This document shows positions 2,787 to 41,749 of a stretch of 41,749 nucleotides of DNA, piece after piece; positions within the stretch are counted from its first letter, which is position 1; the number at the start of each line of letters is the position of its first letter. Source of the DNA: a virus; the IMG/VR virus record IMGVR_UViG_3300038330_000020; one strand, 5' to 3'. The position numbers were made by a program, and so were the translations under genes. Below the pieces are notes generated by a model. That model searched no databases. It was given only the letters and a program-made list of their open reading frames with translations, and was not told where the DNA came from.

Positions 2787-3665
2787 ATGCCACTACCTGA
2801 AGAACACGCGGCGCTTTTGCCGGAGGATATTCGCTCCGACCCGACGTTACAGAATTACAACGACTTCGGGAGCATGGCTAAAAGTTTTATTGAAACTAAG
2901 GCCATGGTAGGCCGATCGATTCAGTTACCGGCCAAGGACGGCAAGCCCGAAGACTTCGACAAATGGGCAGGCGAAACCGGCGCAAAGTTAAAGGACTACG
3001 GTTACACCGTTGCTAAACCTAACGAACCACCGCCGGAAAAGCCCGACGCCTATGATTTTAAGGTGGAAGGGTTTGACCCGCAGGCGATCAAATCTGACAT
3101 TGTCGCCAACTCGTTTAAAGAGTTTGCGCATGGGGAAAAGTTGAGCCAAGCCCAGGCAAACAGGTTTGTTGAGTGGTGGGCCAAGAAGGGCGCGCCGGCA
3201 GTCATGGCGAAGATGGACGAAGCGCAGGCGGCTCAACAAATTGAAATGATCGAGCAGCCCGAGCAGCGGGATAAAATCCTCGGCGAAGTATTCCAAGGCG
3301 CGCACAAGCAGGCATTGGAGCTGCGCGACAATACGATCACGACACTTAAGGCCGAGATACCTGAGCTTGAGGACTTCTTGACCGGCACCGCACCCTACGG
3401 CGCGCCATGGATGACGAACCGCGATCACCCGGCCATGGTGAAGCTATTAAACTTCGTTGGCGAAATGAAGCAGCAAGATTTCGGCGGGCACGTTACCGGC
3501 TTGACCGCGGCTGATACCATGGACAGCGTTGACGACGAGATCAGCAAGCTGCGCGCCGAATCGAACGCAACCAGCGACCAGCGTGAACGGAACCGTATTG
3601 GCGACAAGATCACGCAGCTTTATCTTAAAAAGACCGCGTTGATGAAGATGAAAAAGGCAAGCTGA
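2787..3665 (+). CDS. putative scaffolding (capsid assembly) protein
   Basis: 292 aa, lying between portal and capsid genes. It is charged and helical, and the N-terminal LPEDIRSDPTLQNY..SMAKSFIET motif is typical of phage scaffold proteins. Confidence 0.6.
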   Translation: MPLPEEHAALLPEDIRSDPTLQNYNDFGSMAKSFIETKAMVGRSIQLPAKDGKPEDFDKWAGETGAKLKDYGYTVAKPNEPPPEKPDAYDFKVEGFDPQAIKSDIVANSFKEFAHGEKLSQAQANRFVEWWAKKGAPAVMAKMDEAQAAQQIEMIEQPEQRDKILGEVFQGAHKQALELRDNTITTLKAEIPELEDFLTGTAPYGAPWMTNRDHPAMVKLLNFVGEMKQQDFGGHVTGLTAADTMDSVDDEISKLRAESNATSDQRERNRIGDKITQLYLKKTALMKMKKAS

Positions 3666-3698
3666 GTGCCGCTTCTATGGCACATTAAGGCAATAGGA

Positions 3699-3851
3699 AT
3701 GCCGATGGCAAAGAAAAAAGAAGTAATAGATTTGACCGACAAGGCCGTGGTTGAGCGATTTGAGAAAATAGAGTCACGACTAGACAGCTTAGAGCGCGGA
3801 CAATTACCAAATAAAAAGGAGAAAAATGACGAAGAAGAAAAAAAAGAATAA
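3699..3851 (+). CDS. hypothetical small charged coiled-coil protein
   Basis: In-frame ATG at 3699 inside track ORF 3666..3851. The sequence is K/E-rich. The start codon is uncertain. Confidence 0.3.
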   Translation: MPMAKKKEVIDLTDKAVVERFEKIESRLDSLERGQLPNKKEKNDEEEKKE

Positions 3852-4009
3852 GCCGAAATATTGAGCCTTACTGGAAGCGCATCACGGGCCAGCGGTGTGC
3901 TTCCTGAAACGCTTAAACGCGATTCACTCCCGACTATCCGGCACGTGGACCGGGAGTTAATCAAAGTGCCATCTAGCCGATGTAAAGGCTAGGTCGGACC
4001 CGCCTTAGC

Positions 4010-4072
4010 GGACTATCCACCGAAAGAGTGCGGCGCTCATCGCCGTTTATCAATCATTTCGGAGGATAGTCC
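4010..4072 (+). promoter_or_regulatory. Long hairpin sequestering the capsid-gene Shine-Dalgarno
   Basis: GGACTATCC-A-CCGAAA (4010-4025) is the reverse complement of TTTCGG-A-GGATAGTCC (4057-4072). The 3' arm contains the SD GGAGGA (4061-4066) and ends 1 nt before the GTG at 4074. Confidence 0.6.
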
Positions 4073-4073
4073 A

Positions 4074-4946
4074 GTGGCATTTACAATAGAACAACATCAC
4101 GTCATCAAGTACGCCGACGACGTACAGATGGCGTATCAGCAAGACGCATCGCGCATGCGTAATTGTGTTGAGCTGAAAACCGGCATCGTCGGTAAATCCT
4201 TTTCTACTAACGACATCGACATCGTTGAGGCCGTCACTAAAGACAGCCGTCACGAGCAGCATAGTCATCAAGACCCCGAGCACAAGGTGCGATGGGGCAA
4301 TCTCACCTATTATTACAACTCGATCATGATGGACCGCGACGACGACGCGAGAGTGTTGGCCGATCCAAAGAACAGCTATGTGATGACCAACGCCGCCAGT
4401 CTTGGCCGGCGCGCCGATCGCACCATCATTAGCGCGCTACTCGGCACCGCGGTTACTCTCGAAGATCGCACCGGAACGCAGGCGTTACCTACCGCGCAGA
4501 AAGTGACCGGCTCAACCTCGGCGCTAACCAAAGCGAAGATTCTAACGGCTAAACGCCTGTTGGATGCAGCTGAAGTGCCGGACGGTGACAGGTACTTCGC
4601 TATCAGCGCGCAGGGACTTGAGGACATGCTGGCAATTACGGAAGTCATCTCAAGCGATTACAACACCGTCAAGGCGCTCGTTGACGGGCAAATCAACACT
4701 TGGCTTGGTTTCAAGTGGGTGAGAACCGAACTGTTACCCATCGGCGTTGTGACCACATTAGTCCGTCAGGCTATCGCGTGGCACAAGTCGGCGCTGGTAT
4801 TTGGCGAAACCACGGCCAGCCAATATACCCGCATCAAGCAGAGAACAGACATGCACGATGCATGGGAGACTTACGCGGCGATCGACATCGGCGCGGTGCG
4901 CAAGCGGGACAAAGGTGTGGTTGAGGTTCATTACCTCGAAACTTAA
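4074..4946 (+). CDS. major capsid protein
   Basis: 290 aa, positioned after the scaffold gene, with a strong SD and a GTG start. Sequence pattern (SRMRN..ELKTG..GKSF; DPKNSYV..AASLGRRADRTIISALLG) resembles podovirus major capsid proteins. Confidence 0.7.
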   Translation: MAFTIEQHHVIKYADDVQMAYQQDASRMRNCVELKTGIVGKSFSTNDIDIVEAVTKDSRHEQHSHQDPEHKVRWGNLTYYYNSIMMDRDDDARVLADPKNSYVMTNAASLGRRADRTIISALLGTAVTLEDRTGTQALPTAQKVTGSTSALTKAKILTAKRLLDAAEVPDGDRYFAISAQGLEDMLAITEVISSDYNTVKALVDGQINTWLGFKWVRTELLPIGVVTTLVRQAIAWHKSALVFGETTASQYTRIKQRTDMHDAWETYAAIDIGAVRKRDKGVVEVHYLET

Positions 4947-4987
4947 TTAACGGGCTAGGATTTTAACCGAAACGGAGTAAACAAATC

Positions 4988-5470
4988 ATGGCAGTTGAAG
5001 CACTTAAAAGTAGACAAATCATAGCGCGCGACGCAGGCGTGCTTGTGCCTTCCTATCTTGGCAAGGGCCAGTGTTTTTTCCTTCGCTCTAGCCCGCCGGT
5101 TGCCGGCAGCTACGGCAGCGGCGACGCTAACAGCACGATCCATTTAGTGACCGTGCCGCCGGGGAAGTTCATGTTAATCGGTCCTCTTTCATTCGTGGCG
5201 CATTCCGCCTTCGGCACCGCGCGCACGATGGACATCGGATGGGCGGCTTACACCAACGAGGACGGGACGGCGGTGGGCGCCGACGAGGACGGCATCCATA
5301 GTGCCGCCGACGTGGCCGCGGCCGGCGCATTCGTGCCGCTCGATGAGCTGGGCGTTAGTCGGATGAAGCTATTCGACAGCAGAAACGGCGTTGACATTCT
5401 CGCCAAGATCGAAGCGGCAGCGCTATCGACAGGTGAGACCATCGACGCAATTTTCTGTTTTCAAGAATAA
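4988..5470 (+). CDS. hypothetical virion-associated protein (possible capsid decoration or accessory)
   Basis: 160-aa ORF directly after the capsid gene. No recognisable motif. Confidence 0.4.
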   Translation: MAVEALKSRQIIARDAGVLVPSYLGKGQCFFLRSSPPVAGSYGSGDANSTIHLVTVPPGKFMLIGPLSFVAHSAFGTARTMDIGWAAYTNEDGTAVGADEDGIHSAADVAAAGAFVPLDELGVSRMKLFDSRNGVDILAKIEAAALSTGETIDAIFCFQE

Positions 5471-6061
5471 ATGTGGGAATACCGAGGAATAAAGGGCGGG
5501 GGTGATTCCCCGTCCTACCTTGGCAAATTCAAGGGGAATCTCATCATCATCGGCGGCGCGCGTAATGTCTGGGTCGATTACATGACGCTTACGCACGGCT
5601 TAGGGTTCGACGGCTCAGTCATGGCGGTGAACGACGTTGGGTGCTTCTTTGACCGACCGCTCAACCATTGGGTGTCAATGCACGCTAATTTTCTAGCTCA
5701 TTGGGTGGCGCTCAGAAAAGGTCATTCGATGCTCGGGCATGAGTGCTTGACGCATACCCGCGAGTCTTACCCAGGGATTCGCGTGGCGTGGGAGATTAGT
5801 CCATACGGCTGGACTAGCGGCATGTTTGCGGCACAGGTGGGCGTCGCCCTCGGGTACGACAAGGTCGTTCTTTGCGGCTTGCCACAGGACGGAACGGGCC
5901 GGTTCTTTGACCCGCCATGGATGCCCGGCGGGGAGCATGACGACGGCAATTCCAAGAAGGCATTTAGGAACATCGTTGAGCAGACACCAGAAATGAAGGC
6001 GCGAGTCAGGTCCATGAGCGGGTGGACCAAGGAGTTATTTGGTGAGCCTGGAACAAGCTGA
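5471..6061 (+). CDS. Rossmann-like protein, possibly DUF115/MptE(Maf)-like transferase
   Basis: LIIIGGARNVW near the N-terminus and SGMFAAQVGVALGYDKVVLCGLP later resemble the MptE/DUF115 layout. The assignment is weak. Confidence 0.3.
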   Translation: MWEYRGIKGGGDSPSYLGKFKGNLIIIGGARNVWVDYMTLTHGLGFDGSVMAVNDVGCFFDRPLNHWVSMHANFLAHWVALRKGHSMLGHECLTHTRESYPGIRVAWEISPYGWTSGMFAAQVGVALGYDKVVLCGLPQDGTGRFFDPPWMPGGEHDDGNSKKAFRNIVEQTPEMKARVRSMSGWTKELFGEPGTS

Positions 6062-6590
6062 GCACGACAAATACGCGCGCATATGGCAGCACGCGGACTA
6101 CCGCAAGAACTCGCCTGGTGAGCGGCTTGTACCTTATTTTGTAAAGCATGTGCCAGCCGAGAAAGGCGACTCGATTATAGACATCGGTTGCGGCACCGGG
6201 AGAGCAGGGGCGGAACTGCAACGCCAGGGGTTTAAGGTTTGTCTTTACGATCACGTTCACGCGGTGGAGGTTGGGTTGCCGTTTATCTTGGGCAACCTGT
6301 GGCTAACACCGCCAATCTTCGGCCAGTTCGACTGGTTTTATTGCTGCGATGTGATGGAACACATACCGACCGAAAAGGTTGATTTAACCCTCGACAATCT
6401 TGCGCAGCTCGCAACCAAGGGCGGGTTTTTTCAAATCGCTTTGTTTCCCGATGAATGGTACGGCGAACAACTCCACATGACAGTCAAGAGTCAAGGCTGG
6501 TGGGTTGATAAGTTGCTTGCGCGTTGGCCGAAGGTAACAACCGACACACCGGAAAAGGGCCGCTTTGTGGCGACCGTGAGGCCGGCGTGA
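6039..6590 (+). CDS. class I SAM-dependent methyltransferase
   Basis: Motif I IIDIGCGTGRAG, then KVCLYD, then FYCCDVMEHIP. The start is uncertain because it overlaps the upstream gene by 23 nt. Confidence 0.8.
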   Translation: MVSLEQAEHDKYARIWQHADYRKNSPGERLVPYFVKHVPAEKGDSIIDIGCGTGRAGAELQRQGFKVCLYDHVHAVEVGLPFILGNLWLTPPIFGQFDWFYCCDVMEHIPTEKVDLTLDNLAQLATKGGFFQIALFPDEWYGEQLHMTVKSQGWWVDKLLARWPKVTTDTPEKGRFVATVRPA

Positions 6591-7138
6591 CAAAAGTTGT
6601 CTGTTTACTCACCGGCGACAAATACCCGCAGGATTATATCATCAAGCTTTACCGCGGCTTGCAGAAACACACTACGCAACCATTTGATTTCGAGGTAATC
6701 ACGGAAACCAAATACCCCGGCTGGTGGGGGAAAATGGAACAATTCCCGCCAAAAGAAAGAATCATCTTGCTCGACGTGGATTTAGTCATCACCGGCAATG
6801 TGGATTTTCTATTTGAGTATCAAGGGCAGTTTTGTTGCTGGCGCGATCCATGGGCGGATGGGCTCAACGGTTCGGTTCATTCGATCGCGCCGGGATTCGG
6901 TGAATCATTCCGCAAGGTGTTTGACTCCGACCCAGACGCATTTATGCGGCGCTATTACAGCGATCAGGAATTTTTGAGGGATTACACTCTGCCGGATTAT
7001 TGGCCTAGCGATTTAATCAAATCCTACAAGGCGGACAGCTTAGAGGATGGCCCGCGTGATTCTCGCATCGTCGTATTCCACGGCAAGCCTAAACCGCATG
7101 AGATCAAAACCGGATGGGTAGCGGAGGCGTGGCAGTAA
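6587..7138 (+). CDS. putative GT-A fold glycosyltransferase (GT8-like, DxD motif)
   Basis: The GTG at 6587 overlaps the upstream TGA (GTGA). VVCLLTGDKY... and ILLDVDLVITGNVDFLF (DxD) are typical of nucleotide-sugar transferases. Confidence 0.5.
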   Translation: MTKVVCLLTGDKYPQDYIIKLYRGLQKHTTQPFDFEVITETKYPGWWGKMEQFPPKERIILLDVDLVITGNVDFLFEYQGQFCCWRDPWADGLNGSVHSIAPGFGESFRKVFDSDPDAFMRRYYSDQEFLRDYTLPDYWPSDLIKSYKADSLEDGPRDSRIVVFHGKPKPHEIKTGWVAEAWQ

Positions 7139-7743
7139 TGGAAAACCAAAGCGACATAGACTTAGCCAACACCGCGCTTAACCTAGTGGGCTCCGATCGC
7201 ATCGTGTCGCTGGACAACACGGTCAACAGCAAGGTGGTTCAATCGGTCAATCAATTCTTATCACTGGCGAAACAGGAAACCTTGCGCGCGCGTGATTGGA
7301 ACCGCGCAAGAGGCCGGGCGACCCTGGCAGCACTGGACGCCAGCCTAAGCCTAGGCGAGTGGTCGCAAGCGTATCGCTTGCCGCCGGATTGTCTTTGTAT
7401 GCGCCGGTTTATCGGGACTTGTGACGCGGAGAGATTCGCCGCCTACAACGTGGAGATCGACGAGGACGACAAGCAGATCCTTTTCACCAACTGCGGCACG
7501 AACAAGATCGTTTACACGCGCAACATCGTCGACGTTAATCGATGGGACTCGCTGATGTTTCGCGCCGCGGTTCAACTACTGGCGTCTTATCTAGTCGGCC
7601 CGCTCATTCGTGACTTCAAAATGCAACAAATGAAAACCCTGGAATTTAAGGACGCCTTTGAAGAAGCGATAGGGACGAACGAGGGCGAGGGCGGGCCGGA
7701 TCAGGTTTACGACAGTACGCTAGTCAGTGTCAGGCATTGGTGA
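7138..7743 (+). CDS. putative tail tubular protein A / adaptor (T7 gp11 position)
   Basis: The ATG at 7138 overlaps the upstream TAA. It is about 200 aa and lies immediately upstream of the large gp12-like gene. N-terminal motif is DLANTALNLVGSDRIVSLD. Confidence 0.5.
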   Translation: MENQSDIDLANTALNLVGSDRIVSLDNTVNSKVVQSVNQFLSLAKQETLRARDWNRARGRATLAALDASLSLGEWSQAYRLPPDCLCMRRFIGTCDAERFAAYNVEIDEDDKQILFTNCGTNKIVYTRNIVDVNRWDSLMFRAAVQLLASYLVGPLIRDFKMQQMKTLEFKDAFEEAIGTNEGEGGPDQVYDSTLVSVRHW

Positions 7744-7904: not shown

Positions 7905-10670
7905 GTGAGCGGCAACGTAACAATCATTCATCACAGCCTCAACGCAGGCGAAGTCTCACCGCGCGTGGTGGGCCGCCAGGACCAAAACAAATATATGGCG
8001 GCGTGCGAGACGATGCTTAACTGGACGCCGCTCGTAGTCGGCGGCGCCGGCCTCAGACCCGGCTCGCTGTTCGTTACCACGACCAAGGACGTAGCTAATC
8101 ATCCTATCAAGAGGATGCGCCCGTTCGTGGCGCACCGGCACGCCGCCTATACGATGGAGATAGGCCACCAGTACATCAGGTTTTTTTTTAACGGATCGCC
8201 AGTTGAATCTAGTCCCGGCACCCCGCTTGAACTGTCTACACCGTACCAAGACACCGACTTAGCCGAACTCTTTCCAGTCCAATCCGTAGACGTTTGCTAT
8301 TTGCTGCACGGCCTTTACGCGCCGCGGAAGATCACCCGGCTTGCCGAGGACGATTTCACCATAACCACGGTCAATTTTAGTCCGCCGGCAACCATGGAGG
8401 ATGAGCCAACCGGCGCGGCTTTGCTGATGGGCACGTTGACACCCGGCGCAACCACAGGCAGCGGCATTGCCTTTGAAGCGGAGAACGGCGGATTCCTCGC
8501 CGCCGACCTGGGCCGGATAATCGTGGCCGGCGGTTCGCGAGCCCTTATCACCGGCGTGACCGATGCCGATACGGTGCAGGTCGATATTATCGATGACTTT
8601 CCCGACACCGACCCGATAGCCGAGGATGATTGGCGCTTAGTCCTATCGCCACAGACTACACTCGACATCACCAACGAGCGCACCGAGGTAGGCCAGCCGG
8701 TGACATTGACCGCGGCTATTCCCGCATTCCGCGCCACCGACGCGGGCAAATGGATTGCGATCTACGGCGGGTTGCTGCAAATCATTGTTGTTGAGGATTC
8801 ATCGAATGTGTCGGCGCTTATCCGCTCACGGCTAGACGACATTACCACCGACAACCCCGACCCGTCCCGGGCGTGGACTTTGGAGGTTGCGGCATGGTCT
8901 AGCGCGCTTGGATTCCCGACCTGTGGTTGTTTTTTCCAAGAACGATTTTGGCTATGCAAGGACTTGACGATAAATGGATCCGTCACCGGTGATTTCGAGA
9001 ACTTTGCCAAAGGCGGAGACGACGATTCAGCCATCGCGCGCACGATCAGCGACGACGACGTTGACGCTATCGTATGGATCAAAGGCGATCAGGATTTAAA
9101 GATCGGCACCTTCAGCGGCGTTTATCAGGCATCACCCACCACCCAGAGCGGCGCCCTCACTCCAACCTCGTTCAAGGTAGTTCCCATCGATGCTAACGGC
9201 GGGGCGCGCGTGCAGCCTTTGCGCGTCTCGCCCGTCCTCATTTACGTCGACGTCAACAAGCGCGAGCTGCGCCAACTCGCTTACGATTTCGCCAGCGACA
9301 AATTCAACTCACAACATTTATTCCGCATGGCGGAACATTTGATCGACGGCTATTTCATCAACGAAATGGCTTACGCGGCTAGTCCCGACTCAACCGTGTA
9401 TGTAGTACGCAATGACGGCGTGCTGTTGGCGCTAGTCTACGAGCAGAACGAAAGCGTGGTTGCTTGGTCCCGCATCGTAACTGACGGCTTAATAAAATCT
9501 TGCTGCGTTATCCCGCGTCCTGAAACCGGCAAAGACTGGGTGTGGTTTATCGTTGAGCGCACCGGAGGCACCTATGTCGAATATCTGGAACCGGATCACA
9601 TCGACACTGGCAGAGAATGGAACGAGCTACGCACAGATTCGGCTGTTGTTGCTGCCCCTGATACTGACGGCGTTGTTGGTGGGCTTGGGCATCTCGAAGG
9701 AAAAACAGTATGGGCCATCGCAGACGGCGCTCTCTACAACACAGGCCGAGACGAGAACAACCAAATAATCAGCACCGCAGTAGTCGAAGGCGGGGAGATA
9801 ACCCTAGAACAGCTTGACCCGCCAACCCCTATTTTCCGCGTTGAAGTGGGCTTGCCGATTGATGCGCGCTTAGTGCCGATCGAGCCGGCGTTACCTGCCG
9901 AGGCGGGCGGGCCGATGATTGCGCGAGGTTATGCCGAGATCGGTATCCGTATCCGGCGCACCCTCGGCCTTAGCATGCGCGCTTGGCGCGTGGGTTTCAG
10001 CGAGCCGGGCGATGACGATTTAGTCGGCGAGCAGCTTGTTTACCGAAAACCTTATCACGTCATGGACGCGCCGGTGCCCCTGCAACAGGGAAAAAAATGT
10101 ATCACAAATCTCGGCTATGATCCTTTTGCGCGTATCGAGATCCGCCAGCAGTTACCCTTTCCCGCCGAGGTGCTTAACGTCGTTGGCAAGTTGCATATTG
10201 GCGATCGTTGGGACTGTGAAACCTACAACGACCCGCAGGTGTTTGTCCGCATCGGATTTTCATCCAAGGAATGTGACGTGGCTTGCCCTCTCGGCGGGTT
10301 TATCGAAGTCACTTACAACGGCGCATTGATCGCAGGCGGGCCGGCGCTGCGCGTGTCGCTCGATAGCGGGCCGTTTGCTTATACCGGGCTTGTAGCCCTT
10401 TACGACCCAGCAACTCAGGTTATAGCATTGGTTCTTTACGACGGCGAAGCACTCTCACCACTCCCCGAACCGCTCACCACGATAGCGCAGATCTTAGTTC
10501 CCGGCGACGTGTTACGCCTTCAAGCCGATAGCCTCGACCCTGAAATATACAGAGTCTTTGTCAACGGCGCGCCGATTATCGAGGAGACCGTAACCGAGGA
10601 AGCGTTAGACCCGGACAATGAATGTCACGGCTTTGTGCAGGTGCCAGACGTGGAGGCGTTAGCGGCATGA
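7905..10670 (+). CDS. putative tail tubular protein B / nozzle (T7 gp12 position) with C-terminal extension
   Basis: 921 aa with a GTG start. The N-terminal pattern LNAGEVSPRVVGRQDQNKY...LRPGSLFV is seen in podovirus tail tube or nozzle proteins, and the synteny fits. Confidence 0.55.
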   Translation: MSGNVTIIHHSLNAGEVSPRVVGRQDQNKYMAACETMLNWTPLVVGGAGLRPGSLFVTTTKDVANHPIKRMRPFVAHRHAAYTMEIGHQYIRFFFNGSPVESSPGTPLELSTPYQDTDLAELFPVQSVDVCYLLHGLYAPRKITRLAEDDFTITTVNFSPPATMEDEPTGAALLMGTLTPGATTGSGIAFEAENGGFLAADLGRIIVAGGSRALITGVTDADTVQVDIIDDFPDTDPIAEDDWRLVLSPQTTLDITNERTEVGQPVTLTAAIPAFRATDAGKWIAIYGGLLQIIVVEDSSNVSALIRSRLDDITTDNPDPSRAWTLEVAAWSSALGFPTCGCFFQERFWLCKDLTINGSVTGDFENFAKGGDDDSAIARTISDDDVDAIVWIKGDQDLKIGTFSGVYQASPTTQSGALTPTSFKVVPIDANGGARVQPLRVSPVLIYVDVNKRELRQLAYDFASDKFNSQHLFRMAEHLIDGYFINEMAYAASPDSTVYVVRNDGVLLALVYEQNESVVAWSRIVTDGLIKSCCVIPRPETGKDWVWFIVERTGGTYVEYLEPDHIDTGREWNELRTDSAVVAAPDTDGVVGGLGHLEGKTVWAIADGALYNTGRDENNQIISTAVVEGGEITLEQLDPPTPIFRVEVGLPIDARLVPIEPALPAEAGGPMIARGYAEIGIRIRRTLGLSMRAWRVGFSEPGDDDLVGEQLVYRKPYHVMDAPVPLQQGKKCITNLGYDPFARIEIRQQLPFPAEVLNVVGKLHIGDRWDCETYNDPQVFVRIGFSSKECDVACPLGGFIEVTYNGALIAGGPALRVSLDSGPFAYTGLVALYDPATQVIALVLYDGEALSPLPEPLTTIAQILVPGDVLRLQADSLDPEIYRVFVNGAPIIEETVTEEALDPDNECHGFVQVPDVEALAA

Positions 10671-13082: not shown

Positions 13083-13796
13083 ATGATTCAATCAATCTAC
13101 ACTCCCGACAACTACACCGGCAACGGCACGTTGGACACATTCGCGTTTACCTTTCGCATCCTTGTTAAGGGCGATCTTGTCGCCATGACCCGGGACACGA
13201 ACGACGTTGAAACGACGCTCGAACTCAACAGCGATTACACGATCAGTGACGCCGACGTGAACACCGCGGACGGCGGCGAGGTGGTGTTGACCGATCCTTT
13301 GCCGACAGGAACCAAAATCTTTTTAATCAGGCGCACGGCGCAGACGCAGCTTAACAACATTGAGGAAGGATCACCTTTCCCGGCGGCAGTAGTCACTAAG
13401 GAATTTGATCGACTGACAATGATGATTCAGGATTTGCAATACCAAATCCGCCAATCTTTGAAGTTTTCGCCGACGAGCGAGATCGAAGATTCAAACTTAC
13501 CTGAGCCCGAGGCCGGCGCGCTCTTACAGTGGAACAGCGACGAGGACGGATTGCAAAACGTCCTGGCTTCATCCCTCGGCCTCACTCACACGGTTATCAC
13601 GCAAGCGATCGCGGCGGGCGCATTTCAAGCCGTGGTTACTCACAACCTAGCCAGCGCAAGCGCGAAAGTAATCGGCTTTAGCGCGAATTGGGGCACTGGA
13701 TTCTCTATCAACTCACAGGATGCCGATACTATTACGCTTGACTTGACCGTGGAGGCGCCAACCGGCGCCGAGATCACGACAGAGGTAGCAATATAA
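13083..13796 (+). CDS. tail fibre adaptor protein with T7 gp17-type N-terminal (tail-attachment) domain
   Basis: N-terminal pattern YTGNGTLDTFAFTFRIL...DYTI...GGEVVLTDPLPTGTKIFLIRRT..Q...F.AAVVTKEFDRLTMMIQDLQ matches the conserved phage T7 tail-fibre N-terminal domain. At only 237 aa it is likely an adaptor rather than a full fibre. Confidence 0.7.
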   Translation: MIQSIYTPDNYTGNGTLDTFAFTFRILVKGDLVAMTRDTNDVETTLELNSDYTISDADVNTADGGEVVLTDPLPTGTKIFLIRRTAQTQLNNIEEGSPFPAAVVTKEFDRLTMMIQDLQYQIRQSLKFSPTSEIEDSNLPEPEAGALLQWNSDEDGLQNVLASSLGLTHTVITQAIAAGAFQAVVTHNLASASAKVIGFSANWGTGFSINSQDADTITLDLTVEAPTGAEITTEVAI

Positions 13797-16700
13797 TGAA
13801 AAAGCTTTTTCTATTATTTGCCTTTCTTTGGGGCTTTACCGGCCAAGCTTGGGGCGCCGCGGCTGAAACCACGGCATATTTAATCCGCACAGACTGCGCC
13901 ACGATCACGAACCCTAAAGACATGGCCGTTGCATGTCTGCAATCAACCACCGTGAGCGGACGCACAGCCGGCCATATTTACGTTTACCGCTCCGGCGTAT
14001 GGGTCGACGTGGACGGCGGGGGCGGGGGCTCAGGTACACCCGGCGGCTCCAATACGCAGGTTCAATACAACAATGCAGGCGTGTTTGGTGGTGACTCGGG
14101 ACTCACTTTCAACGCGACCAGCAACGTGCTAACCGCCACCGGCGGCTTTATCGGTCCCTTGACAGGGAATCTCGTTGGCAACGTGACGGGCACCGTTACA
14201 GGCAACGCAACCACCGCGACGGCATTATCGGCAAATCCCAATAACTGTTCACCGGGCCAAGCCCCACTTGGCATTACAGCAGCAGGCGCCGCTGAGTCAT
14301 GCTTTGACGTAGCGACACAAACCGAACTCGACGCGCACACGGCTGGCACCGGGACGACGGTGCACGGCGCGGCGTCAACGAACACGGCGAGTGCGATTGT
14401 TACCAGGGACGCAAGCGGCAACTTTTCGGCAGGCACTATCACCGCGGCGATCACCGGCGCCGTGACCGGGAACGTGGTGGGAAATGTAACGGGCAATGTT
14501 ACCGGCAACGTCAGCGGCACGGCTGGAAGTTTGGCGGCCAACGGAACCAACTGCGCAGCGGGCGAAGCAGCGGGCGGCGTGGATGCCAGCGGCAACGCCG
14601 AGGACTGTATCACCGTCGGCGGCGGCGGCGGCACTCCGGTTGTCTTGGATCTCGGCAACGACGCTTCCAGTGAATCAACCGACCTTGCCAAGATCACCAC
14701 GACGGGCGACACCAACTCTATTTTCAGCGAGCCAAACGCCAACGAGCTGCGCATAGCCGTAGGTAACAAATGGCCCGCAGCCAACACGGCAGACCTAGCG
14801 ACCGCGGCAACTGCGTTAAATGCCAACGGCGCGAACTGTAGCGCCGGACAATTCCCGCTTGGGGTAGACGCCAGCGGCGCGGCTGAGAGTTGCACGGCCT
14901 TGCCAACGACCATCGCAGGCACGGCCAACCAGATCACCGCTAGCGCGGCGACCGGCGCCGTTACACTGTCAATCCCGACTAGCCCGACTTTGCCAGGCAC
15001 TACCACCGGAACGTTCAGCGGCAACCTAACCGGCAATGTAACCGGCGACGTGACCGGCTCGGTAATCGGCAACGTAACCGGCACGGCTTCTTTTGCCGGG
15101 GCTCTCAGCGCCAACGGGACGAATTGTAGCGTAGGGCAGGCGGCGGCCGGTGTCGATGCTCAAGGCAACGCGGAGGACTGCAACACGGTCCTAGCAACCC
15201 CCGGCGGTTCAGACACCCACGTCCAGTTTAATGACGCTGGCACCCTCAACGGTGACGCAGGGCTTACTTACAACAAGACGACCGACGTATTGACCGCTAC
15301 TGGCGGCTTCGTTGGACCCTTGACGGGCACGGCATCACTCGCCACAGCCTTAGCGGCAAATCCGACCGATTGCGGCGCGAATGAATTTGCAATAGCGATT
15401 GCGGCCAACGGCAACCTTACCTGCACCACGCCAGCGGGCGGCGGCGACGTTACCGGGCCGGCATCGTCGGTTGACTCCGAAATCGCTTTGTTTAGTTCGA
15501 CCACCGGCAAGGTCATTAAGCGCGCTACGACTACCGGCGTATTGAAAGGCACCTCGGGTGTATTGAGCGCAGCGACAGCTGGCGTGGATTACGTCTTGCC
15601 GGCGGGCAATGTCGCCACGGCAACCGCTTTGGCGGCAAATCCCGACAACTGCGCGGCAGGGCAAGGGCCGCTCGGGATCAACGCCGCAGGGCAGGTTGAA
15701 GGTTGCACCGACTACGTAGAAGAACCGGCCAGCGCGGGCATCATAGCCAAGACCGCGGCCAACACCACGGCGGCGCGCAGTATCGCCAGCTCGGCGCCGA
15801 TCACGGTTACAAACGGCAACGGCGTGGCCGGGGATCCGGTTGTGGCTTGTACGACTTGCGGCGTGACGGGCAGTCCTCTTTCACAGTTTGCCGCGACGAC
15901 CTCGGCGCAATTAGCCGCCACGATCAGCAACGAAACCGGCTCGGGCGCGGTTGTGTTTGGCACCTCGCCAACCTTGACGACGCCGGTTATAGCCGACTAC
16001 ACCACCGCGCAGCACGCGCACACGGCGGCATCGAGCGGCGGCAAGCTATCGGCAAGCGCAGCATTGACCGCAACCGGCACGCCGTCGGCGTCGACCTTTT
16101 TACGCGGTGACAACGCCTGGGCGGCGCCTGTAGCCGGCGCGGGCGGCTCGACGACGCAAATGCAGTACAACAACGCCGGGGCGGTTGCCGGTGTGGCAGG
16201 TTGTACCAGTGACGGCACAAACCAGACATGCGGCACCGACACCCTAAGAGCCACTAACCCGCGCATCACGACCGGACTCCGCGACTCAAGCGGCAACCCT
16301 TGGGTTGCAGTCACGCCAACAGCCAGCGCCGTCAATGGAATCAATATCACCAACGCAGCTACGGGCGGCACGCCGCAAATATCGGCAGTAGGCAGTGATA
16401 CCAACGTCGGGCTTAACCTTTCCGGCCAGGGCACCGGGGCTATCTGTTTAGGTACGAGCTGCGCGACGAGCACGACGACAGTCGGTAGCGTCGAAGCCGG
16501 TTCGGCCAAGTTCAACGGCACGACCTCGGGAACCATCAGCATGTTACCGCAGGCCGCGGCGGGTACTTACAACTTCAATCTACCGACCACGGCAGGCAGC
16601 GCGGCGGACTGTCTCAAGTCAGGCGGCGGCGGCGCTTCGCCTATGACCTGGGGCGCATGCGGGGGTGGAGGCGGCGGCGGCGGTGACTTCGCTTCGATCA

Positions 16701-18292
16701 CCTCGGGCACCAATACCACCATGGCGGCGGTTATCGGCTCGGGCGCGACCCTCGATTACACCGGCTCGGGAACCATCAACGCGACCACAGTGAACGGCGG
16801 CGCGGTTGCGCCGATTGCGGTTAATAAGACGGTTGACCCGGCAACCAGCGATAACACGGCGGCGGGATACCCTAACGGCTCGGCTTGGATCAACACCACA
16901 GCCAGCCCTGACACGGTTTGGATAAAGACCGGCGAAACAACGGGAACCGCGGCATGGGCGCAGCACTCTTTAACCGGCCATGCTCACAGCGCGGCAGACG
17001 TGACTTCCGGCACCTTGCCATTGGCTCGAGGCGGCACAAATCAAACAAGCTGGACGGCTTCACGCTGCGTGCAAGTCAACGCGGGCGGGACGGCACTGGA
17101 AAGCGCCTCAGCGGCTTGCGGCACCGGCTCAGGCGGCGGCGGCACTTCCGGCCCAATGAACACAGCGACCTCGACCGGCACGGCGGGCGCTTCCGTTAGC
17201 AGCGCCGAAACGCAGGTTACGACTGTTTCGATTACACCCAACGCGACGACTTCCAAGGTGCTGATTCTTGCGCGCGTTGATTGGAGCAAAGATTCAGGGA
17301 CTACAGTCCGCACCGTAACGACCCGGGTCAGGCGCGGCACGACCAACGGCGACCCTCTTGTCAGTCAATCGAGCATTATCAATTCGATCAACGTGTCGAA
17401 CAGCCCGGCGTTAGGACCGGCGGTGATTTTGGCGATCGACTCGCCAAGCACGACCAGCGCGACCACGTACCGGCTATCCGGCCAGACCGGCGCGGGCAAT
17501 GAAACGGCGACAACCTTTGAGCTGCAAGCTGTCGAATTGACCGGCAGCGGCTTTGCGCCGGCAGACAAGACCTATTGGACCTCACAGGCGGAAACCGGAC
17601 TCAGCGCAGAAACGAACCTCGGCGCGCTTACCACCGGACTCCTAAAGCACACTGTTTCCGGCAGCGTCAGCACGCCAGCAACAGCCACAGCCGGAACTGA
17701 TTACAGCCATCCGTCGACAGCCGAAACCCGCACCAACATGACGATTGACGCCGAGGGCACCGGCAATGTCGTCACGATGCCGTTTACCCTGTTCTTACCC
17801 GCGGCAGGCGGCACAGCGGCGGCGCCGGCTTCTGTCTGGGATTTGCCGGCCGCCAACCCGGCGGTCGCAGTTGTCACGGCGGGCACAAATACACTTCAAG
17901 GTACTTTGGACTTCGCCGACGGCGCCGACACATTAAGCGCACAAACTAATTGGATGATTCCCTCGGATTGGGTGGGCACGGTTGACGCTAGAATCAAGTG
18001 GTTTACCTCGGCGACAACCGGCGACGTGGTCTGGCAACTGGCGACGATATGCGTAGCCGACGCCGAAACCAACGACCCGGCATTCAACACGGCAAGCACA
18101 GTGACCGACACCGCGAAGGGAACAACGAATCAACTTAACGACGCGGCCATCACGACCCTTACCGTTACCGGGTGCGCGGCGGGCGAGCTGATGCACTTGA
18201 AGGTGTCACGCGATCCGACCACCGGCGCGGATACCCTGGCGGCAACGGCGCGGCTAGTTGGAATCGAGCTGAAATACCGGAGAACCATGTAA
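13796..18292 (+). CDS. large tail fibre-like protein (1498 aa) with signal-peptide-like N-terminus
   Basis: Repeated VQYNNAG..G...LT.N modules, GNVTG runs, six Cys-pair repeats and poly-Gly hinges. TGLLK...AGTDY motifs are typical of podovirus fibres. N-terminus is MKKLFLLFAFLWGFTGQAWG/AAA. Confidence 0.8.
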   Translation: MKKLFLLFAFLWGFTGQAWGAAAETTAYLIRTDCATITNPKDMAVACLQSTTVSGRTAGHIYVYRSGVWVDVDGGGGGSGTPGGSNTQVQYNNAGVFGGDSGLTFNATSNVLTATGGFIGPLTGNLVGNVTGTVTGNATTATALSANPNNCSPGQAPLGITAAGAAESCFDVATQTELDAHTAGTGTTVHGAASTNTASAIVTRDASGNFSAGTITAAITGAVTGNVVGNVTGNVTGNVSGTAGSLAANGTNCAAGEAAGGVDASGNAEDCITVGGGGGTPVVLDLGNDASSESTDLAKITTTGDTNSIFSEPNANELRIAVGNKWPAANTADLATAATALNANGANCSAGQFPLGVDASGAAESCTALPTTIAGTANQITASAATGAVTLSIPTSPTLPGTTTGTFSGNLTGNVTGDVTGSVIGNVTGTASFAGALSANGTNCSVGQAAAGVDAQGNAEDCNTVLATPGGSDTHVQFNDAGTLNGDAGLTYNKTTDVLTATGGFVGPLTGTASLATALAANPTDCGANEFAIAIAANGNLTCTTPAGGGDVTGPASSVDSEIALFSSTTGKVIKRATTTGVLKGTSGVLSAATAGVDYVLPAGNVATATALAANPDNCAAGQGPLGINAAGQVEGCTDYVEEPASAGIIAKTAANTTAARSIASSAPITVTNGNGVAGDPVVACTTCGVTGSPLSQFAATTSAQLAATISNETGSGAVVFGTSPTLTTPVIADYTTAQHAHTAASSGGKLSASAALTATGTPSASTFLRGDNAWAAPVAGAGGSTTQMQYNNAGAVAGVAGCTSDGTNQTCGTDTLRATNPRITTGLRDSSGNPWVAVTPTASAVNGINITNAATGGTPQISAVGSDTNVGLNLSGQGTGAICLGTSCATSTTTVGSVEAGSAKFNGTTSGTISMLPQAAAGTYNFNLPTTAGSAADCLKSGGGGASPMTWGACGGGGGGGGDFASITSGTNTTMAAVIGSGATLDYTGSGTINATTVNGGAVAPIAVNKTVDPATSDNTAAGYPNGSAWINTTASPDTVWIKTGETTGTAAWAQHSLTGHAHSAADVTSGTLPLARGGTNQTSWTASRCVQVNAGGTALESASAACGTGSGGGGTSGPMNTATSTGTAGASVSSAETQVTTVSITPNATTSKVLILARVDWSKDSGTTVRTVTTRVRRGTTNGDPLVSQSSIINSINVSNSPALGPAVILAIDSPSTTSATTYRLSGQTGAGNETATTFELQAVELTGSGFAPADKTYWTSQAETGLSAETNLGALTTGLLKHTVSGSVSTPATATAGTDYSHPSTAETRTNMTIDAEGTGNVVTMPFTLFLPAAGGTAAAPASVWDLPAANPAVAVVTAGTNTLQGTLDFADGADTLSAQTNWMIPSDWVGTVDARIKWFTSATTGDVVWQLATICVADAETNDPAFNTASTVTDTAKGTTNQLNDAAITTLTVTGCAAGELMHLKVSRDPTTGADTLAATARLVGIELKYRRTM

Positions 18293-19548: not shown

Positions 19549-21542
19549 TGCGACGGTTATTTTTTGTCCTTATCGCGTGGCTGTGTTTGGCAGGCTCGGC
19601 TTGGGCTTCGACGCTTTCAACAACCATTGCCGCGATGCCCGCCGATTCATGGGCGGTTATCTCGCCGTCCAATACCGGAGTAATCGGCGGCGGACTAACA
19701 ACCAGCTTCGGAGACTCCGGCGCCTGGGATCCGATCAATAGAAAGTTTCTATTTACCGGCGCAGATCACGGTGTCGGTTACGACTTCGTTATCTGGGACG
19801 ACGCCACAAACGCTTGGACGAGCGGCGCGGCTTTGCCGGGAGTACCTAAGAGTACGATCTTTGTCGGCCATGCCTTTGACGGCAACACGACCGACTATAA
19901 CGGCAATTACTTTTATAGATGCAGGCGCGGCACATGCGGGAACGATATTTATAAATACAATGTCACAACGGGCGCATGGACGACCCTGCCTAACAACACC
20001 GCAGAGACTAACGAGAACAACGATTGTTGCACCGGCATTGCCTACTTTCCCGAATTGGGCGGGCTTGTATGGATCACCAACACCGGACAGATTTGGCTTT
20101 GGAACGCGACGAGTAACACATGGTCACTTCTTACCACGGCGTCAGGATATAGCGCGGGAACGTGGGCGTTTGCCGAATACAATCCGATTCGCAAGGTAGT
20201 TTTATTCGGCAGCGGCGTTAGTAGTCAACTTTTCAGCCTCAGCGCAACGGGCGTGGTCACAGCCAAGGGCGCTATCCCGCATACCATTTATTCCGGCGAC
20301 GGCTTCAACGGCCATGTTACGCACGACCCGGTAACAGGACTCTTTATTGTACTCACCTCGGGTACGCATCAGTGCAAGACCTACGAAGTATCAACCGATA
20401 CATGGGGAACCTGCACCAATCCGCCGGCAGGCATGCAAAATATGTCCGTGGCTTCCGCCAGCGTCACGAATTACGGCGCAACGGTGTACTTCAACTGCGG
20501 CCAATTCACCGGCTCATGTACCGGCAATATGTATATCTACAAGCGCGCGTCTTTAACGGCGGACTCCGATTTCGCTACGCGCTGCGCAACGGCTGGGGTG
20601 ACGGCGTGTTGGGGATTCAATAACACCACCACCGATATTGTTACAACCGGAGCAAACCCAAATCTTTACGCAGGCGACACGACTACAGCTAGTCTCGACA
20701 CCGTCACTAAAGTATCGGGCGCCGGTTCTCTGCGGTTTAACCTACCCGCAGGAGCAAGCGGCGCGAACATAGCCGGGCAATGGACAAAATTAAACTCGCC
20801 TTACAACCTGCTCGGCGCATCTTTCGGCGGCGGGCAAACTTTCTATCTGCAATTCCAACAGCGATTCAATCCGGCGATGATGACCAACACGAGTTTTTGG
20901 AATTCGTCATGGAAGCAAGTGGCATTTTATCAAAACAACGTCGCGTGCGCAGCGATGGAATTGACCACGGTTCACAAGAATTTTAGCTCATTCCCGAACA
21001 ACTTTCCGGTTATGTACACGGATTGCGGCGACCCCGGCCAATTCAATCCGACCAACGGCGGGTTTATCTATCTGCAACAGGGCGCCGATCCGTTCCCAAC
21101 CGGCGCGGGCTACAACTGCCGGTTTGGTTTCATCAATGGGACAGAGTGTTTTATCTACCCAACCGACAAGTGGATCACGTTTTATTACAAGATCACCATC
21201 GGCACCTATAGCGCCGGGCCGAACGATTTTGTTGGCACGCAGGTCGACGCATGGGTTGCAATAGACGGCGGGCCTTATAAACAATGGCAAAACATCACCA
21301 TGAATCTTTCAGCCGGCGGCAACGGCGCGTCGGCAGTAATCAACAACATTACGTTTTTACCCTACATGACCTCGCTTTCGACCTCGGCGCCGCTCGACGC
21401 CTTCACGTGGATCGATGAGCTAATCGTTTCGACCTTGCCAATCTCGGCGCCGCAGGGAGCAGGCAGCGGCGGCGTAGACCCGCCAATACCCCCGGCACCG
21501 ACTAACCCGGTTAGTTTTAGAATTTCGCAGTTATCAAAATGA
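19548..21542 (+). CDS. Kelch-like beta-propeller protein with C-terminal ConA-like (polysaccharide-lyase/glucanase-like) jelly roll
   Basis: N-terminus is MRRLFFVLIAWLCLAGSAWA/STL. Blade motifs recur (NAWTSGAALPG, GAWTTLPN, NTWSLLTTASG, DTWGTCTNPP). The C-terminal pattern is SLRFNL...W..V.F...WITFYYKI...VDAWVAIDG...WIDELIV. Confidence 0.55.
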   Translation: MRRLFFVLIAWLCLAGSAWASTLSTTIAAMPADSWAVISPSNTGVIGGGLTTSFGDSGAWDPINRKFLFTGADHGVGYDFVIWDDATNAWTSGAALPGVPKSTIFVGHAFDGNTTDYNGNYFYRCRRGTCGNDIYKYNVTTGAWTTLPNNTAETNENNDCCTGIAYFPELGGLVWITNTGQIWLWNATSNTWSLLTTASGYSAGTWAFAEYNPIRKVVLFGSGVSSQLFSLSATGVVTAKGAIPHTIYSGDGFNGHVTHDPVTGLFIVLTSGTHQCKTYEVSTDTWGTCTNPPAGMQNMSVASASVTNYGATVYFNCGQFTGSCTGNMYIYKRASLTADSDFATRCATAGVTACWGFNNTTTDIVTTGANPNLYAGDTTTASLDTVTKVSGAGSLRFNLPAGASGANIAGQWTKLNSPYNLLGASFGGGQTFYLQFQQRFNPAMMTNTSFWNSSWKQVAFYQNNVACAAMELTTVHKNFSSFPNNFPVMYTDCGDPGQFNPTNGGFIYLQQGADPFPTGAGYNCRFGFINGTECFIYPTDKWITFYYKITIGTYSAGPNDFVGTQVDAWVAIDGGPYKQWQNITMNLSAGGNGASAVINNITFLPYMTSLSTSAPLDAFTWIDELIVSTLPISAPQGAGSGGVDPPIPPAPTNPVSFRISQLSK

Positions 21543-41602: not shown

Positions 41603-41749
41603 GAACGTACCGGCTCAAGGGTGAAACCGGGCCTATTGGGGATTGTAAATTTGAGATAAGGGCGCTGAGTAATGACATCCGCGAACTTCAAAAAACTCGG
41701 CAAAAGGTGAAGCAAGAGCTGAGATCATTACAAGCGAAGAAAAAGAAGA
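41599..41749 (+). CDS. hypothetical coiled-coil protein (51 aa) spanning the contig junction; completed by bases 128-132 of the left repeat copy
   Basis: The ATG at 41599 overlaps the upstream TGA. The reading frame runs off the window and ends at the TGA at 130-132 in the identical left copy. Confidence 0.4.
   Translation, partial: MRTYRLKGETGPIGDCKFEIRALSNDIRELQKTRQKVKQELRSLQAKKKK
41623..41749. repeat. Terminal direct repeat, right copy (identical to 1..127)
   Basis: Exact 127-bp identity with the first 127 bases. Confidence 0.95.

Follow-up and report, generated by a model that had tools for sequence, protein, structure and literature searches.

What do three enzyme genes do between the head and tail genes of a podovirus? 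We addressed this question in the window, the whole 41,749-nucleotide stretch of DNA analyzed here (IMG/VR record IMGVR_UViG_3300038330_000020), which is the genome of a complete, uncultured HTVC010P-like podovirus. Positions 5471–7138 encode ORF-A, a class I SAM methyltransferase and a GT8-like glycosyltransferase. All three genes are real and conserved. They are translationally coupled, also to the head and tail genes on either side, and they lie after the genes for the major capsid protein and a 160-residue protein (p160) and before that for tail tubular protein A. An earlier note on this DNA had described them as a cassette interrupting a T7-like gene order, and the comparison with HTVC010P bears this out: there, the order is capsid, a 165-residue gene, a 74-residue gene, tail A and tail B, and the cassette enzymes are absent. 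No DNA similarity to isolated phages was found with blastn, and relatives are recognizable at the protein level only. With slightly better than even confidence, we favor the view that the cassette encodes a cytoplasmic glycosylation module, expressed late, whose target during assembly is a protein of the head (the major capsid protein or p160). The sugar placed on the phage head would possibly be methylated.

The genes of this region are tightly packed on the forward strand. The upstream edge of the head block is the major capsid gene (4074–4946), whose product is a Phage_capsid_2 protein of the HTVC010P type (Pfam PF19821, E 1e-69; PHROG 3437 ‘major head protein’) with 33–38% identity to pelagiphage capsid proteins of that type. 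It is followed by the p160 gene (4988–5470), and the p160 stop codon (TAA, 5468–5470) is followed immediately by the ATG of ORF-A at 5471. ORF-A (5471–6061) encodes a predicted soluble, single-domain enzyme of 196 residues. Its stop codon (6059–6061) lies within the methyltransferase gene (6039–6590, ∼182 residues), which starts at TTG 6039 or GTG 6042; the resulting overlap of ∼20 nt is also found in the relative L006. The four letters GTGA at 6587–6590 contain both the start codon of the glycosyltransferase gene and the stop codon of the methyltransferase gene, and the glycosyltransferase gene (6587–7138, 183 residues from a GTG start) shares a TAATG with tail tubular protein A at 7136–7140. 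Reading of the sequence places the final base of the glycosyltransferase stop codon at 7138, so that the limits given for the cassette in the earlier note were exact. The database call of this glycosyltransferase (P0047) is 183 residues long, which shows a 204-residue TTG ORF beginning at 6524 to be overlong. Tail tubular protein A (7138–7743, 201 residues; PHROG 394 ‘tail protein’, E 3e-26) begins at ATG 7138 rather than at 7114; the tail A protein of L006 aligns with it from residue 1 onward at 67% identity, which confirms this start.

All three cassette genes are under purifying selection. In the comparison with L006, dN/dS is ∼0.10 for ORF-A and 0.08 for the capsid gene, with synonymous sites near saturation. 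We found 46 clusters of ORF-A homologs (best E 3e-110) and 38 clusters of glycosyltransferase homologs. None of the cassette proteins contains a membrane-like hydrophobic segment, and all three are soluble. A scan for promoters and terminators inside the cassette returned nothing convincing, with results at or below shuffle expectation, and is therefore uninformative.

On sequence grounds, the second cassette protein is a class I SAM methyltransferase of the small-molecule type. It scores 37.1 bits with the Pfam entry PF13489 (Methyltransf_23), for which the cut-off is 27, is above threshold for PF08242, PF13649 and PF08241 as well, and matches PHROG 24759 ‘methyltransferase’ with an E-value of 8e-13. 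Motif I, the glycine-rich SAM loop (D/E-x-G-x-G-x-G), occupies residues 45–56 (IIDIGCGTGRAG), and the string IIDIGCGTG is present, which includes the DIGCGTG quoted in the earlier note for the same class assignment. A regular-expression search of the protein found no DNA-methyltransferase motif (D/N/S)PP(Y/F/W/H), and there is no match to a DNA-methylase Pfam entry.

These features bear on the suggestion that the cassette hypermodifies phage DNA, producing glycosylated or methylated modified bases as a defense against restriction. Phage sets of glycosyltransferases and methyltransferases of such a kind are known, according to two sources (bioRxiv 10.1101/2023.12.21.572611; PMC13326640), and, since most ORFs in the window are without annotation, a base-modifying pathway could be hidden among them. 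We nevertheless regard this explanation as very improbable. The methyltransferase is of the Methyltransf_23 type and lacks the DNA-methyltransferase motifs, the cassette lies in a head operon rather than in a replication module, and a Pfam scan of the window detected no family of TET/JBP proteins, hydroxymethylases or DNA glycosyltransferases; the DNA glucosyltransferases that are known come from other families.

The third cassette protein is, as judged from profile matches, a GT8/glycogenin-like DxD glycosyltransferase, which agrees with its earlier recognition as a DxD enzyme. The profile of its family matches the Skp1 alpha-galactosyltransferase (6mw5) with an E-value of 9.4e-9, glycogenin-1/2 with E-values of 6e-4 to 1e-3 and the GT8 entry 5gvv with an E-value of 0.009, and the protein itself matches PHROG 1962 ‘glycosyltransferase’ (E 5e-18). 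In the DxD motif, which reads LLDVDLV as previously quoted, D65 is invariant and D63 near-invariant across 28 homologs. The canonical GT8 C-terminal His/Lys motif is HxxGxxKPW. Here, the C-terminal motif is FHGKPKPHE, in which H165, G166 and P168 are invariant; its spacing is unlike that of canonical GT8 enzymes, and the alignment with glycogenin covers the region. The protein has no match to PF01501 (Glyco_transf_8), and its sole Pfam match is to Mannosyl_trans3 (E 0.17). The DxD and C-terminal H-G-x-P-K-P elements are conserved among the homologs. Glycogenin and the Skp1 alpha-galactosyltransferase Gat1, its best matches of solved structure, are ∼260–350 residues long, compared with 183 here.

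ORF-A misses the thresholds of every curated family in Pfam, PHROG and NCBIfam; its own family contains at least 2,156 cluster representatives. Sequence profiles and structure prediction suggest that it is a founding member of an unnamed family within the MptE-like/DUF115 (Maf)/GT42 sialyltransferase fold group, a placement that applies at the superfamily level only. The AlphaFold2 model is a single domain with a pLDDT of 91.8. A Foldseek search with this model gave as its best PDB match the pterin pyrophosphokinase MptE (HPPK) of M. jannaschii (8sd5, E 3e-4), with CstII ranked second (TM 0.53) and the GT29 sialyltransferases ST8SiaIII and ST6GalNAc2 matched too, all TM-scores being modest (0.47–0.53). 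Among viral proteins, it matches MptE-like/DUF115 proteins with E-values of 8e-6 to 3e-3, and sialyltransferase-type proteins also. The fold is thus that of the CMP-sugar transferases (the Maf central domain, GT42 and GT29) and of MptE, although the TM-score to MptE and the Maf central domain is only ∼0.5. The central PF01973 domain of Maf has itself been reported to have the CstII fold (PMC11339370).

PF01973, with a gathering threshold of 34.6 bits, has no match in the ORF-A of the window. It gives sub-threshold matches in three of 32 ORF-A family members, with E-values of 0.007 or weaker, and scores 27–31 bits, again short of that threshold, in the two-domain relatives P0108 and P0112; PF06002 also matches some family members below threshold. 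The resemblance to DUF115/Maf proteins put forward in the earlier note therefore stands at the superfamily level, where both profiles and Foldseek support it, and does not extend to membership of a curated family.

A link at the sequence level is found with the sialyltransferases CstI and CstII (GT42) of Campylobacter jejuni, which the ORF-A family profile matches with an E-value of 3.5e-4 (hmmsearch). Using hhalign, the family aligns with the verified CstII sequence at 90% probability and 38% identity over 37 columns (CstII residues 129–167). Among solved structures, this is the sole significant match of ORF-A at the sequence level, with its motif RITSGVYMCAVAIALGYKEIYLSG lying opposite GWTSGMFAAQVGVALGYDKVVLCG in CstI/CstII. 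ORF-A keeps the nucleotide-phosphate-binding helix motif of GT42 (R-I-T-S-G...ALGY..I.L.G), in which S116, L127, G128 and G136 are invariant in the family. The likeness is confined to these ∼37 columns: ORF-A is ∼70 residues shorter than CstII, an enzyme whose substrate is lipooligosaccharide, and is without the lid and membrane-association regions. The catalytic residues Tyr156 and Tyr162 of CstII are not conserved in the hhalign alignment, the first falling in a gap and the second lying opposite Arg/His, and the alignment ends before the general base, His188.

Because the best PDB fold match is a pterin pyrophosphokinase, chemistry other than glycosyl transfer is possible for ORF-A. It might transfer a phosphoryl or pyrophosphoryl group in a nucleotide-dependent, MptE-like manner, or act on small molecules in some other way, and the cassette would then consist of three independent accessory genes in a common insertion hot spot. 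The missing GT42 tyrosines are in line with this explanation, as are the independent presence and absence of the methyltransferase and the GT8 in other phages and the variability of the gap between capsid and tail A genes, which also holds unrelated ORFs. We consider it quite unlikely, however, in view of the protein P0211, in which ORF-A is fused to GT2 and TOD1/MUCI70 glycosyltransferase-like domains, and of the sugar-related genes found recurrently beside ORF-A in many lineages. Furthermore, PF01973 members are mostly Maf-type transferases, and, of the four families matched by structure, three use CMP-sugars.

The case for a head protein as the target of glycosylation is supported by the genomic context. 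In ∼45 loci examined, ORF-A is located in head or packaging modules belonging to at least four unrelated capsid lineages. It follows the capsid and cement genes in ∼20 podovirus loci, comes after an HK97-type capsid gene, a p141 gene and an Ad1 adaptor gene in siphovirus-like loci, and in L031, L037 and L045 lies just upstream of the genes for scaffold and capsid. The cultured Paracoccus phage vB_PkoS_Pkon1 has an ORF-A homolog, p38, immediately 3′ of its capsid gene, p37; p38 has no PHROG match across the ORF-A domain. Bacterial genomes yielded a single ORF-A match, in a Brevundimonas MAG, where the surroundings are prophage-like (portal, collagen-like and adaptor genes), which suggests that the family is in essence a viral one.

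The genes that accompany ORF-A in the same slot vary in the manner of a small glycosylation island. They include a GT8 in ∼11 loci and methyltransferases in ∼10, with homologs of the methyltransferase described here following ORF-A in L002, L006, L007, L016, L017, L021 and L022. Elsewhere, the slot contains a GT2-like gene (L014), a hexapeptide acyltransferase (L012, E 1e-26), a protein with the NDP-hexose C-methyltransferase architecture PF08421 + PF13489 + PF08484 (L018), or a sulfotransferase-like protein together with GT2-like genes (L003). A 203-residue gene downstream of the methyltransferase in L007 was considered as a further GT8 and rejected. The earlier note had treated the trio as a unit, and co-occurrence did not uphold this: the closest long relative, with 79% identity in ORF-A, is without the GT8, and many phages have ORF-A with neither partner. 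ORF-A is the anchor gene, beside which the methyltransferase and the GT8 are present or absent independently, and the trio is not fixed.

A different target is conceivable for the same enzymes, which could build glycans on tail or fiber proteins or on a polymer of the host envelope (LPS or capsule), perhaps as a barrier to superinfection or as a help in release. The cassette is directly upstream of tail tubular protein A, and ORF-A adjoins the terminase gene rather than the capsid gene in ∼1/4 of loci. The phage also has a beta-helix and lectin-like tailspike, which indicates that polysaccharide biology matters to it, and GT8 enzymes often act on LPS cores (LgtC and RfaI/J families). We judge such a target to be unlikely, since all three cassette proteins are small, soluble and free of membrane anchors, since no flippase accompanies them, and since the locus is a late structural operon and not a lysogenic-conversion locus. 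The recurrence of ORF-A in the head or packaging modules of unrelated capsid lineages also points away from it.

Within the head, the capsid protein and p160 are the candidate acceptors. p160 has no match in Pfam or PHROG, and its AlphaFold model has a pLDDT of 90.3. The model matches capsid chain H of cyanophage Pam1 in Foldseek (7eel_H, TM 0.56/0.63, probability 1.00), and also the cement protein of the Helicobacter pylori phages KHP30/KHP40 and capsid chain J of Ralstonia phage GP4 (8h89_J), from which p160 is predicted to be a beta-sandwich cement or decoration protein of the capsid. In HTVC010P and in almost every locus of related podoviruses, an ORF of 140–170 residues comes after the capsid gene, and the small protein at this position is core to the phage group. 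These post-capsid proteins form several unrelated-looking subfamilies, and no shared acceptor motif was found across the cement-protein subfamilies. The invariant motifs GDANST and ADEDG are confined to the p160 subfamily and were rejected as evidence for an acceptor site. The earlier proposal that virion proteins are glycosylated thus gains from the context (head modules, sugar-tailoring neighbors, the glycosyltransferase fusion and the predicted cement protein), while the pterin pyrophosphokinase fold match of ORF-A weighs against it.

If the cassette does decorate the head, ORF-A would recognize a virion protein, or would cap a glycan already present on one. Its presence alone in many phages suggests that the donor would be an activated sugar made by the host, and a CMP-nonulosonic or ulosonic acid is one possibility. 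A UDP-sugar would supply the hexose that the GT8 adds, with its configuration retained, and the methyltransferase would O-methylate the sugar. The likely outcome would be a surface glycan coat that alters the adhesion, stability or recognition of the virion. Pfam scans detected no genes for nucleotide-sugar or nonulosonic-acid synthesis in 19 of the remaining larger ORFs of the window, nor in 10 unexplained ORFs from the extended cassettes of L016, L017, L023, L028 and L034.

A more specific proposal is that the ORF-A family consists of Maf-like protein O-glycosyltransferases that ‘sialylate’ capsid surface proteins using host CMP-nonulosonic or ulosonic acids (pseudaminic, legionaminic or Kdo-like), which we hold to be rather doubtful. 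Maf flagellin glycosyltransferases, with their central PF01973 domain, belong to the same fold group as ORF-A. Both are soluble and cytoplasmic, both are encoded beside the gene for a putative polymerizing surface-protein target, and both are accompanied by variable sugar-tailoring islands. Maf proteins, however, are built of three domains and run to several hundred residues (PMC11339370), whereas ORF-A is a single domain of 196 residues in a phage head operon. Likewise, the acceptor of Maf is flagellin and its donor a CMP-nonulosonic acid, while no nonulosonic-acid synthesis genes accompany ORF-A in the scanned ORFs. If the proposal is true, ‘sialylation’ by ORF-A would be the viral counterpart of flagellin glycosylation, and glycan-coated capsids would be a common feature of the phages that infect Gram-negative bacteria in the environment.

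To our knowledge, glycosylation of phage particles has been demonstrated in only a few groups, mainly the mycobacteriophages, where it alters antibody recognition. In a summary of Freeman et al. (2023), the glycosyltransferases of mycobacteriophages such as Che8 and Rita are thought or shown to glycosylate major capsid proteins and so to provide a surface glycan shield (PMC11256854). As described there, that system differs from the cassette in its enzyme families, in its hosts (Actinobacteria) and in its place in the genome, which is near the 3′ end in the Che8 type; its glycans have been demonstrated experimentally, whereas those of the cassette are predicted. The locus analyzed here suggests a different and perhaps far more widespread set of enzymes, anchored by a family with thousands of members and no Pfam or PHROG model. 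Our literature search found no paper linking DUF115/MptE-like proteins to phage capsids. Glycosylated capsids would change the view of the surface chemistry of aquatic and soil phages, including stickiness, stability, grazing and immune recognition in therapy, and the enzymes, being compact and soluble, could serve in the glyco-engineering of protein cages.

A partial precedent for the gene set is in phage P1. The P1 protein PmgQ (HdmD in P7) is a clear homolog of the GT8 of the window (hhalign 99.8%; tblastn), and PmgO and PmgP, of ∼210–220 residues, have sub-threshold MptE-like matches. The alignment of PmgO with the ORF-A family is weak (E 0.002), although its register is correct; at an hhalign probability of 13%, PmgO and PmgP are superfamily-level relatives only. 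P1 thus has the same pairing of enzyme types, controlled by a late promoter, and the earlier statement that virion glycosylation is not described for this gene set is to be qualified accordingly. Unlike the cassette, the operon of P1 lacks a methyltransferase, and the capsid gene is not adjacent to it. We know of no glycosylation of P1 virions. The pmg analogs are non-essential, dispensable for plaque formation and without known function, so that P1 offers no mechanism; conversely, if our favored reading of the cassette is true, it would give a function to the long-unexplained pmgO, pmgP and pmgQ. Phage P1, with PmgO/P/Q, and Paracoccus phage Pkon1, with p38, are both cultured and would provide tractable models.

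The three-gene cassette at 5471-7138 lies between p160, a 160-aa gene (4988-5470), and the gene for tail tubular A (7138-7743). Upstream are the portal (676-2331), a scaffold-like gene (2787-3665) and the major capsid protein gene of the Phage_capsid_2 type (4074-4946), and tail tubular B follows at 7905-10670. Bases 1-127 of the window exactly repeat bases 41623-41749, which makes the window a complete genome of ~41.6 kb, either circularly assembled or terminally redundant, and the phage is an HTVC010P-like podovirus. In the pelagiphage HTVC010P itself the order is capsid, 165 aa, 74 aa, tail A, tail B, and the cassette enzymes are absent; they therefore represent an insertion into a conserved gene order.

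Reading of the gene junctions showed the cassette coordinates in the earlier note to be exact. The genes from p160 to tail A are packed without gaps. The ATG of the first cassette gene, ORF-A (5471-6061, 196 aa), directly follows the TAA stop of p160, and ORF-A overlaps the start of the methyltransferase gene (6039-6590, from TTG 6039 or GTG 6042) by ~20 nt, as it does in one relative (L006). The methyltransferase and glycosyltransferase (6587-7138) genes overlap as GTGA at 6587, and the glycosyltransferase stop and tail A start overlap as TAATG, the latter start, at 7138, being borne out by alignment with a relative's protein. The GTGA overlap gives a glycosyltransferase of 183 aa, as in the database protein P0047; a 204-aa ORF starting at TTG was ruled out. 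A scan inside the cassette revealed no credible promoter or terminator, and we take the cassette to be part of the late head-tail operon.

Searches of Pfam, PHROG and NCBIfam gave no family for ORF-A. The sole PDB matches of a profile built from 32 homologues were the GT42 sialyltransferases CstI and CstII (E 3.5e-4), and comparison with the CstII sequence, checked beforehand against the PDB, gave 90% probability over CstII residues 129-167, the nucleotide-phosphate-binding helix. A few family members also have sub-threshold matches to PF01973 (MptE-like/DUF115) and PF06002 (CST-I). The AlphaFold model has high confidence (pLDDT 91.8). Its top PDB fold match in Foldseek is MptE, an archaeal pyrophosphokinase (E 3e-4); CstII (E 1.5e-3, TM 0.53) and GT29 sialyltransferases were matched as well. 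Against viral models, Foldseek first returned two homologues that are uncharacterised; MptE-like and DUF115 proteins came next, along with a herpesvirus sialyltransferase. A PF01973 domain with a CstII-like fold is present in the Maf flagellin glycosyltransferases (PMC11339370). From these profile and fold matches, together with the Maf domain, we conclude that ORF-A is a new minimal family (~190 aa, single domain) within the MptE/DUF115/GT42 fold group, and a member of none of the MptE, DUF115 or GT42 families themselves. Our literature search found no paper linking this fold group to phage capsids.

An exhaustive HMM search recovered 2,156 cluster representatives of the family at E <=1e-3 and 1,698 at <=1e-10, nearly all of them stand-alone proteins of 170-235 aa. 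The main value of the locus lies in this large, unnamed family, whose genes lie in head or packaging modules. The dN/dS ratio is ~0.10 for ORF-A vs 0.08 for the capsid gene, with synonymous sites near saturation, which places ORF-A under purifying selection similar to that on the capsid gene. Among 185,579 species genomes of bacteria and archaea, a single one has a match, a Brevundimonas sp. MAG (L047, NZ_DASPMM010000001.1, 3536-6735), where a portal, a 251-aa collagen-like repeat protein and an Ad1-like adaptor precede, in this order, a 247-aa homologue with a C-terminal extension, in what looks like a prophage.

We compared the context of ORF-A over ~45 loci. About 20 HTVC010P-like podovirus contigs run from capsid through a small post-capsid protein, ORF-A and variable genes to tail A. 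HK97-type siphovirus-like contigs have, in order, the capsid (PHROG 10), a p141 gene (PHROG 5707), the head-tail adaptor Ad1 and ORF-A, usually without another enzyme close by. ORF-A stands immediately upstream of scaffold and capsid genes in three loci (L031, L037 and L045), and the cultured Paracoccus phage vB_PkoS_Pkon1 has the homologue, p38, right after its capsid gene. In a further group it adjoins the large terminase, with GT2-like genes, methyltransferases and GT8. Carbohydrate enzymes recur as neighbours in the variable slot: GT8 (~11 of the ~45 loci), Methyltransf_23-type methyltransferases (~10), an FkbM-type methyltransferase and a GT2-like protein (L014). In related phages the slot, between capsid and tail A, also holds a hexapeptide acyltransferase (L012, 7774-8283, E 1e-26), a 532-aa protein with the three-domain NDP-hexose C-methyltransferase architecture (L018, 5421-7019; PF08421 + PF13489 + PF08484, E down to 1e-39) and a sulfotransferase-like protein (L003, 6575-7162), and so behaves as a miniature variable glycan-tailoring island. 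The trio is not conserved as a unit: ORF-A and the methyltransferase occur without GT8 in the closest long relative (79% ORF-A identity), and L005 has ORF-A alone. ORF-A is the anchor gene, with the methyltransferase and GT8 as exchangeable accessories.

The methyltransferase, of an ordinary class I SAM type, scores above the Pfam threshold for PF13489 and has DIGCGTG as motif I; its closest solved structures, at weak E-values, are small-molecule methyltransferases. A motif search found no DPPY-type DNA-methyltransferase motif in it, and we consider hypermodification of DNA by the cassette very improbable. The glycosyltransferase falls below the GT8 threshold in the Pfam scan, and its family profile matches GT8 enzymes, namely Skp1 alpha-galactosyltransferase (E 9.4e-9), glycogenin and a bacterial GT8. 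Within the family, D65 of the DxD motif never varies and D63 hardly does, a C-terminal H-G-x-P-K-P motif is conserved, and relatives in isolated phages include P1 PmgQ, P7 HdmD and the pelagiphage Mosig glycosyltransferase.

The earlier note had read the genes as a modification cassette, plausibly for virion glycosylation; the three genes stand as described, and this interpretation is partly supported. On balance we lean towards a glycosylation module that works in the cytoplasm on a head protein of the virion, given the late co-expression of soluble cytoplasmic enzymes with head proteins, the presence of ORF-A in head/packaging modules across unrelated capsid lineages, the variable sugar-tailoring neighbours and a glycosyltransferase-domain fusion (P0211, 678 aa: ORF-A, GT2 and TOD1/MUCI70 glycosyltransferase-like domains). 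The same chemistry directed at tail proteins, or at a polymer of the host envelope, we think unlikely with ORF-A so placed. A reading of ORF-A as something other than a glycosyltransferase, with the three as independent accessory genes, accords with the loose association of the trio; set beside the fusion, it seems to us quite unlikely.

Under head-protein glycosylation, ORF-A would be a protein-directed or capping transferase using a host-supplied activated sugar, GT8 would add a hexose, and the methyltransferase would methylate the sugar. CMP-activated nine-carbon acidic sugars are the donors of all glycosyltransferases among ORF-A's fold relatives, which makes such a donor attractive, and by this analogy we infer that ORF-A might use one. 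Against it, the alignment with CstII shows no conservation of the GT42 catalytic residues Tyr156 and Tyr162 and ends before His188, and the best fold match in the PDB is a kinase. Pfam scans covering 19 of the larger ORFs left in the window and 10 unexplained ORFs from extended cassettes of relatives (L016, L017, L023, L028 and L034) found no synthesis genes for these sugars.

The p160 protein or the capsid protein is a plausible acceptor, and we found no sequence features pointing to one. The AlphaFold model of p160 is a beta-sandwich (pLDDT 90.3) matching cryo-EM capsid cement/decoration proteins of cyanophage Pam1 (TM 0.56/0.63), Helicobacter phages KHP30 and KHP40 and Ralstonia phage GP4. 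HTVC010P and nearly all of the related loci carry a small post-capsid protein in this position, though it falls into several divergent subfamilies. Residues 44-50 and 97-102 of p160 (5117-5137 and 5276-5293) contain G-D-A-N-S-T and A-D-E-D-G, invariant or nearly so in 22 homologues and absent from the other subfamilies. D-A-N-S-T fits the bacterial D/E-x-N-x-S/T N-glycosylation sequon; it is probably a structural motif and the fit coincidental.

Phage-encoded virion glycosylation is known in mycobacteriophages such as Che8, according to a summary (PMC11256854) of Freeman et al. 2023. As summarised there, the kind of system is alike, but enzymes, hosts and layout differ. The nearest named proteins are in the late operon pmgL-pmgQ of phage P1, where PmgQ is a clear homologue of the GT8 and PmgO and PmgP (~210-220 aa) have sub-threshold MptE-like (PF01973) matches. 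PmgO, labelled alpha-2,3-sialyltransferase in RefSeq, shows a weak alignment to the ORF-A family, in correct register. PmgO, PmgP and PmgQ are dispensable for laboratory plaque formation and have no assigned function (PMC10695390). The region (NC_005856, 3078-5636) also holds a Ser/Thr phosphatase gene, ppp, between them. The hypothesis is testable in the cultured phages P1 and Pkon1, which adds to the main value of the locus.

Elsewhere in the window, an exact 31-bp direct repeat (439-470 and 675-706) gives a 79-aa ORF (440-679) and the portal gene (start 676) the same first ten codons (MTRPAEIIKF), as if a small gene had been inserted by recombination with duplication of the portal 5' end. 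Two giant ORFs without Pfam match, at 13796-18292 (1498 aa; in a markedly GC-rich stretch, 0.61-0.64 vs 0.48-0.58 in the rest of the window) and 26096-30268 (1390 aa; in a stretch of strong AT skew, 0.27-0.39), may encode internal or ejection proteins and a polymerase-like protein. A 642-aa protein (21539-23467) combines a right-handed beta-helix with a concanavalin-A-like lectin/glucanase domain and is probably a tailspike that binds or degrades polysaccharide, suggesting capsule or O-antigen as the host receptor.
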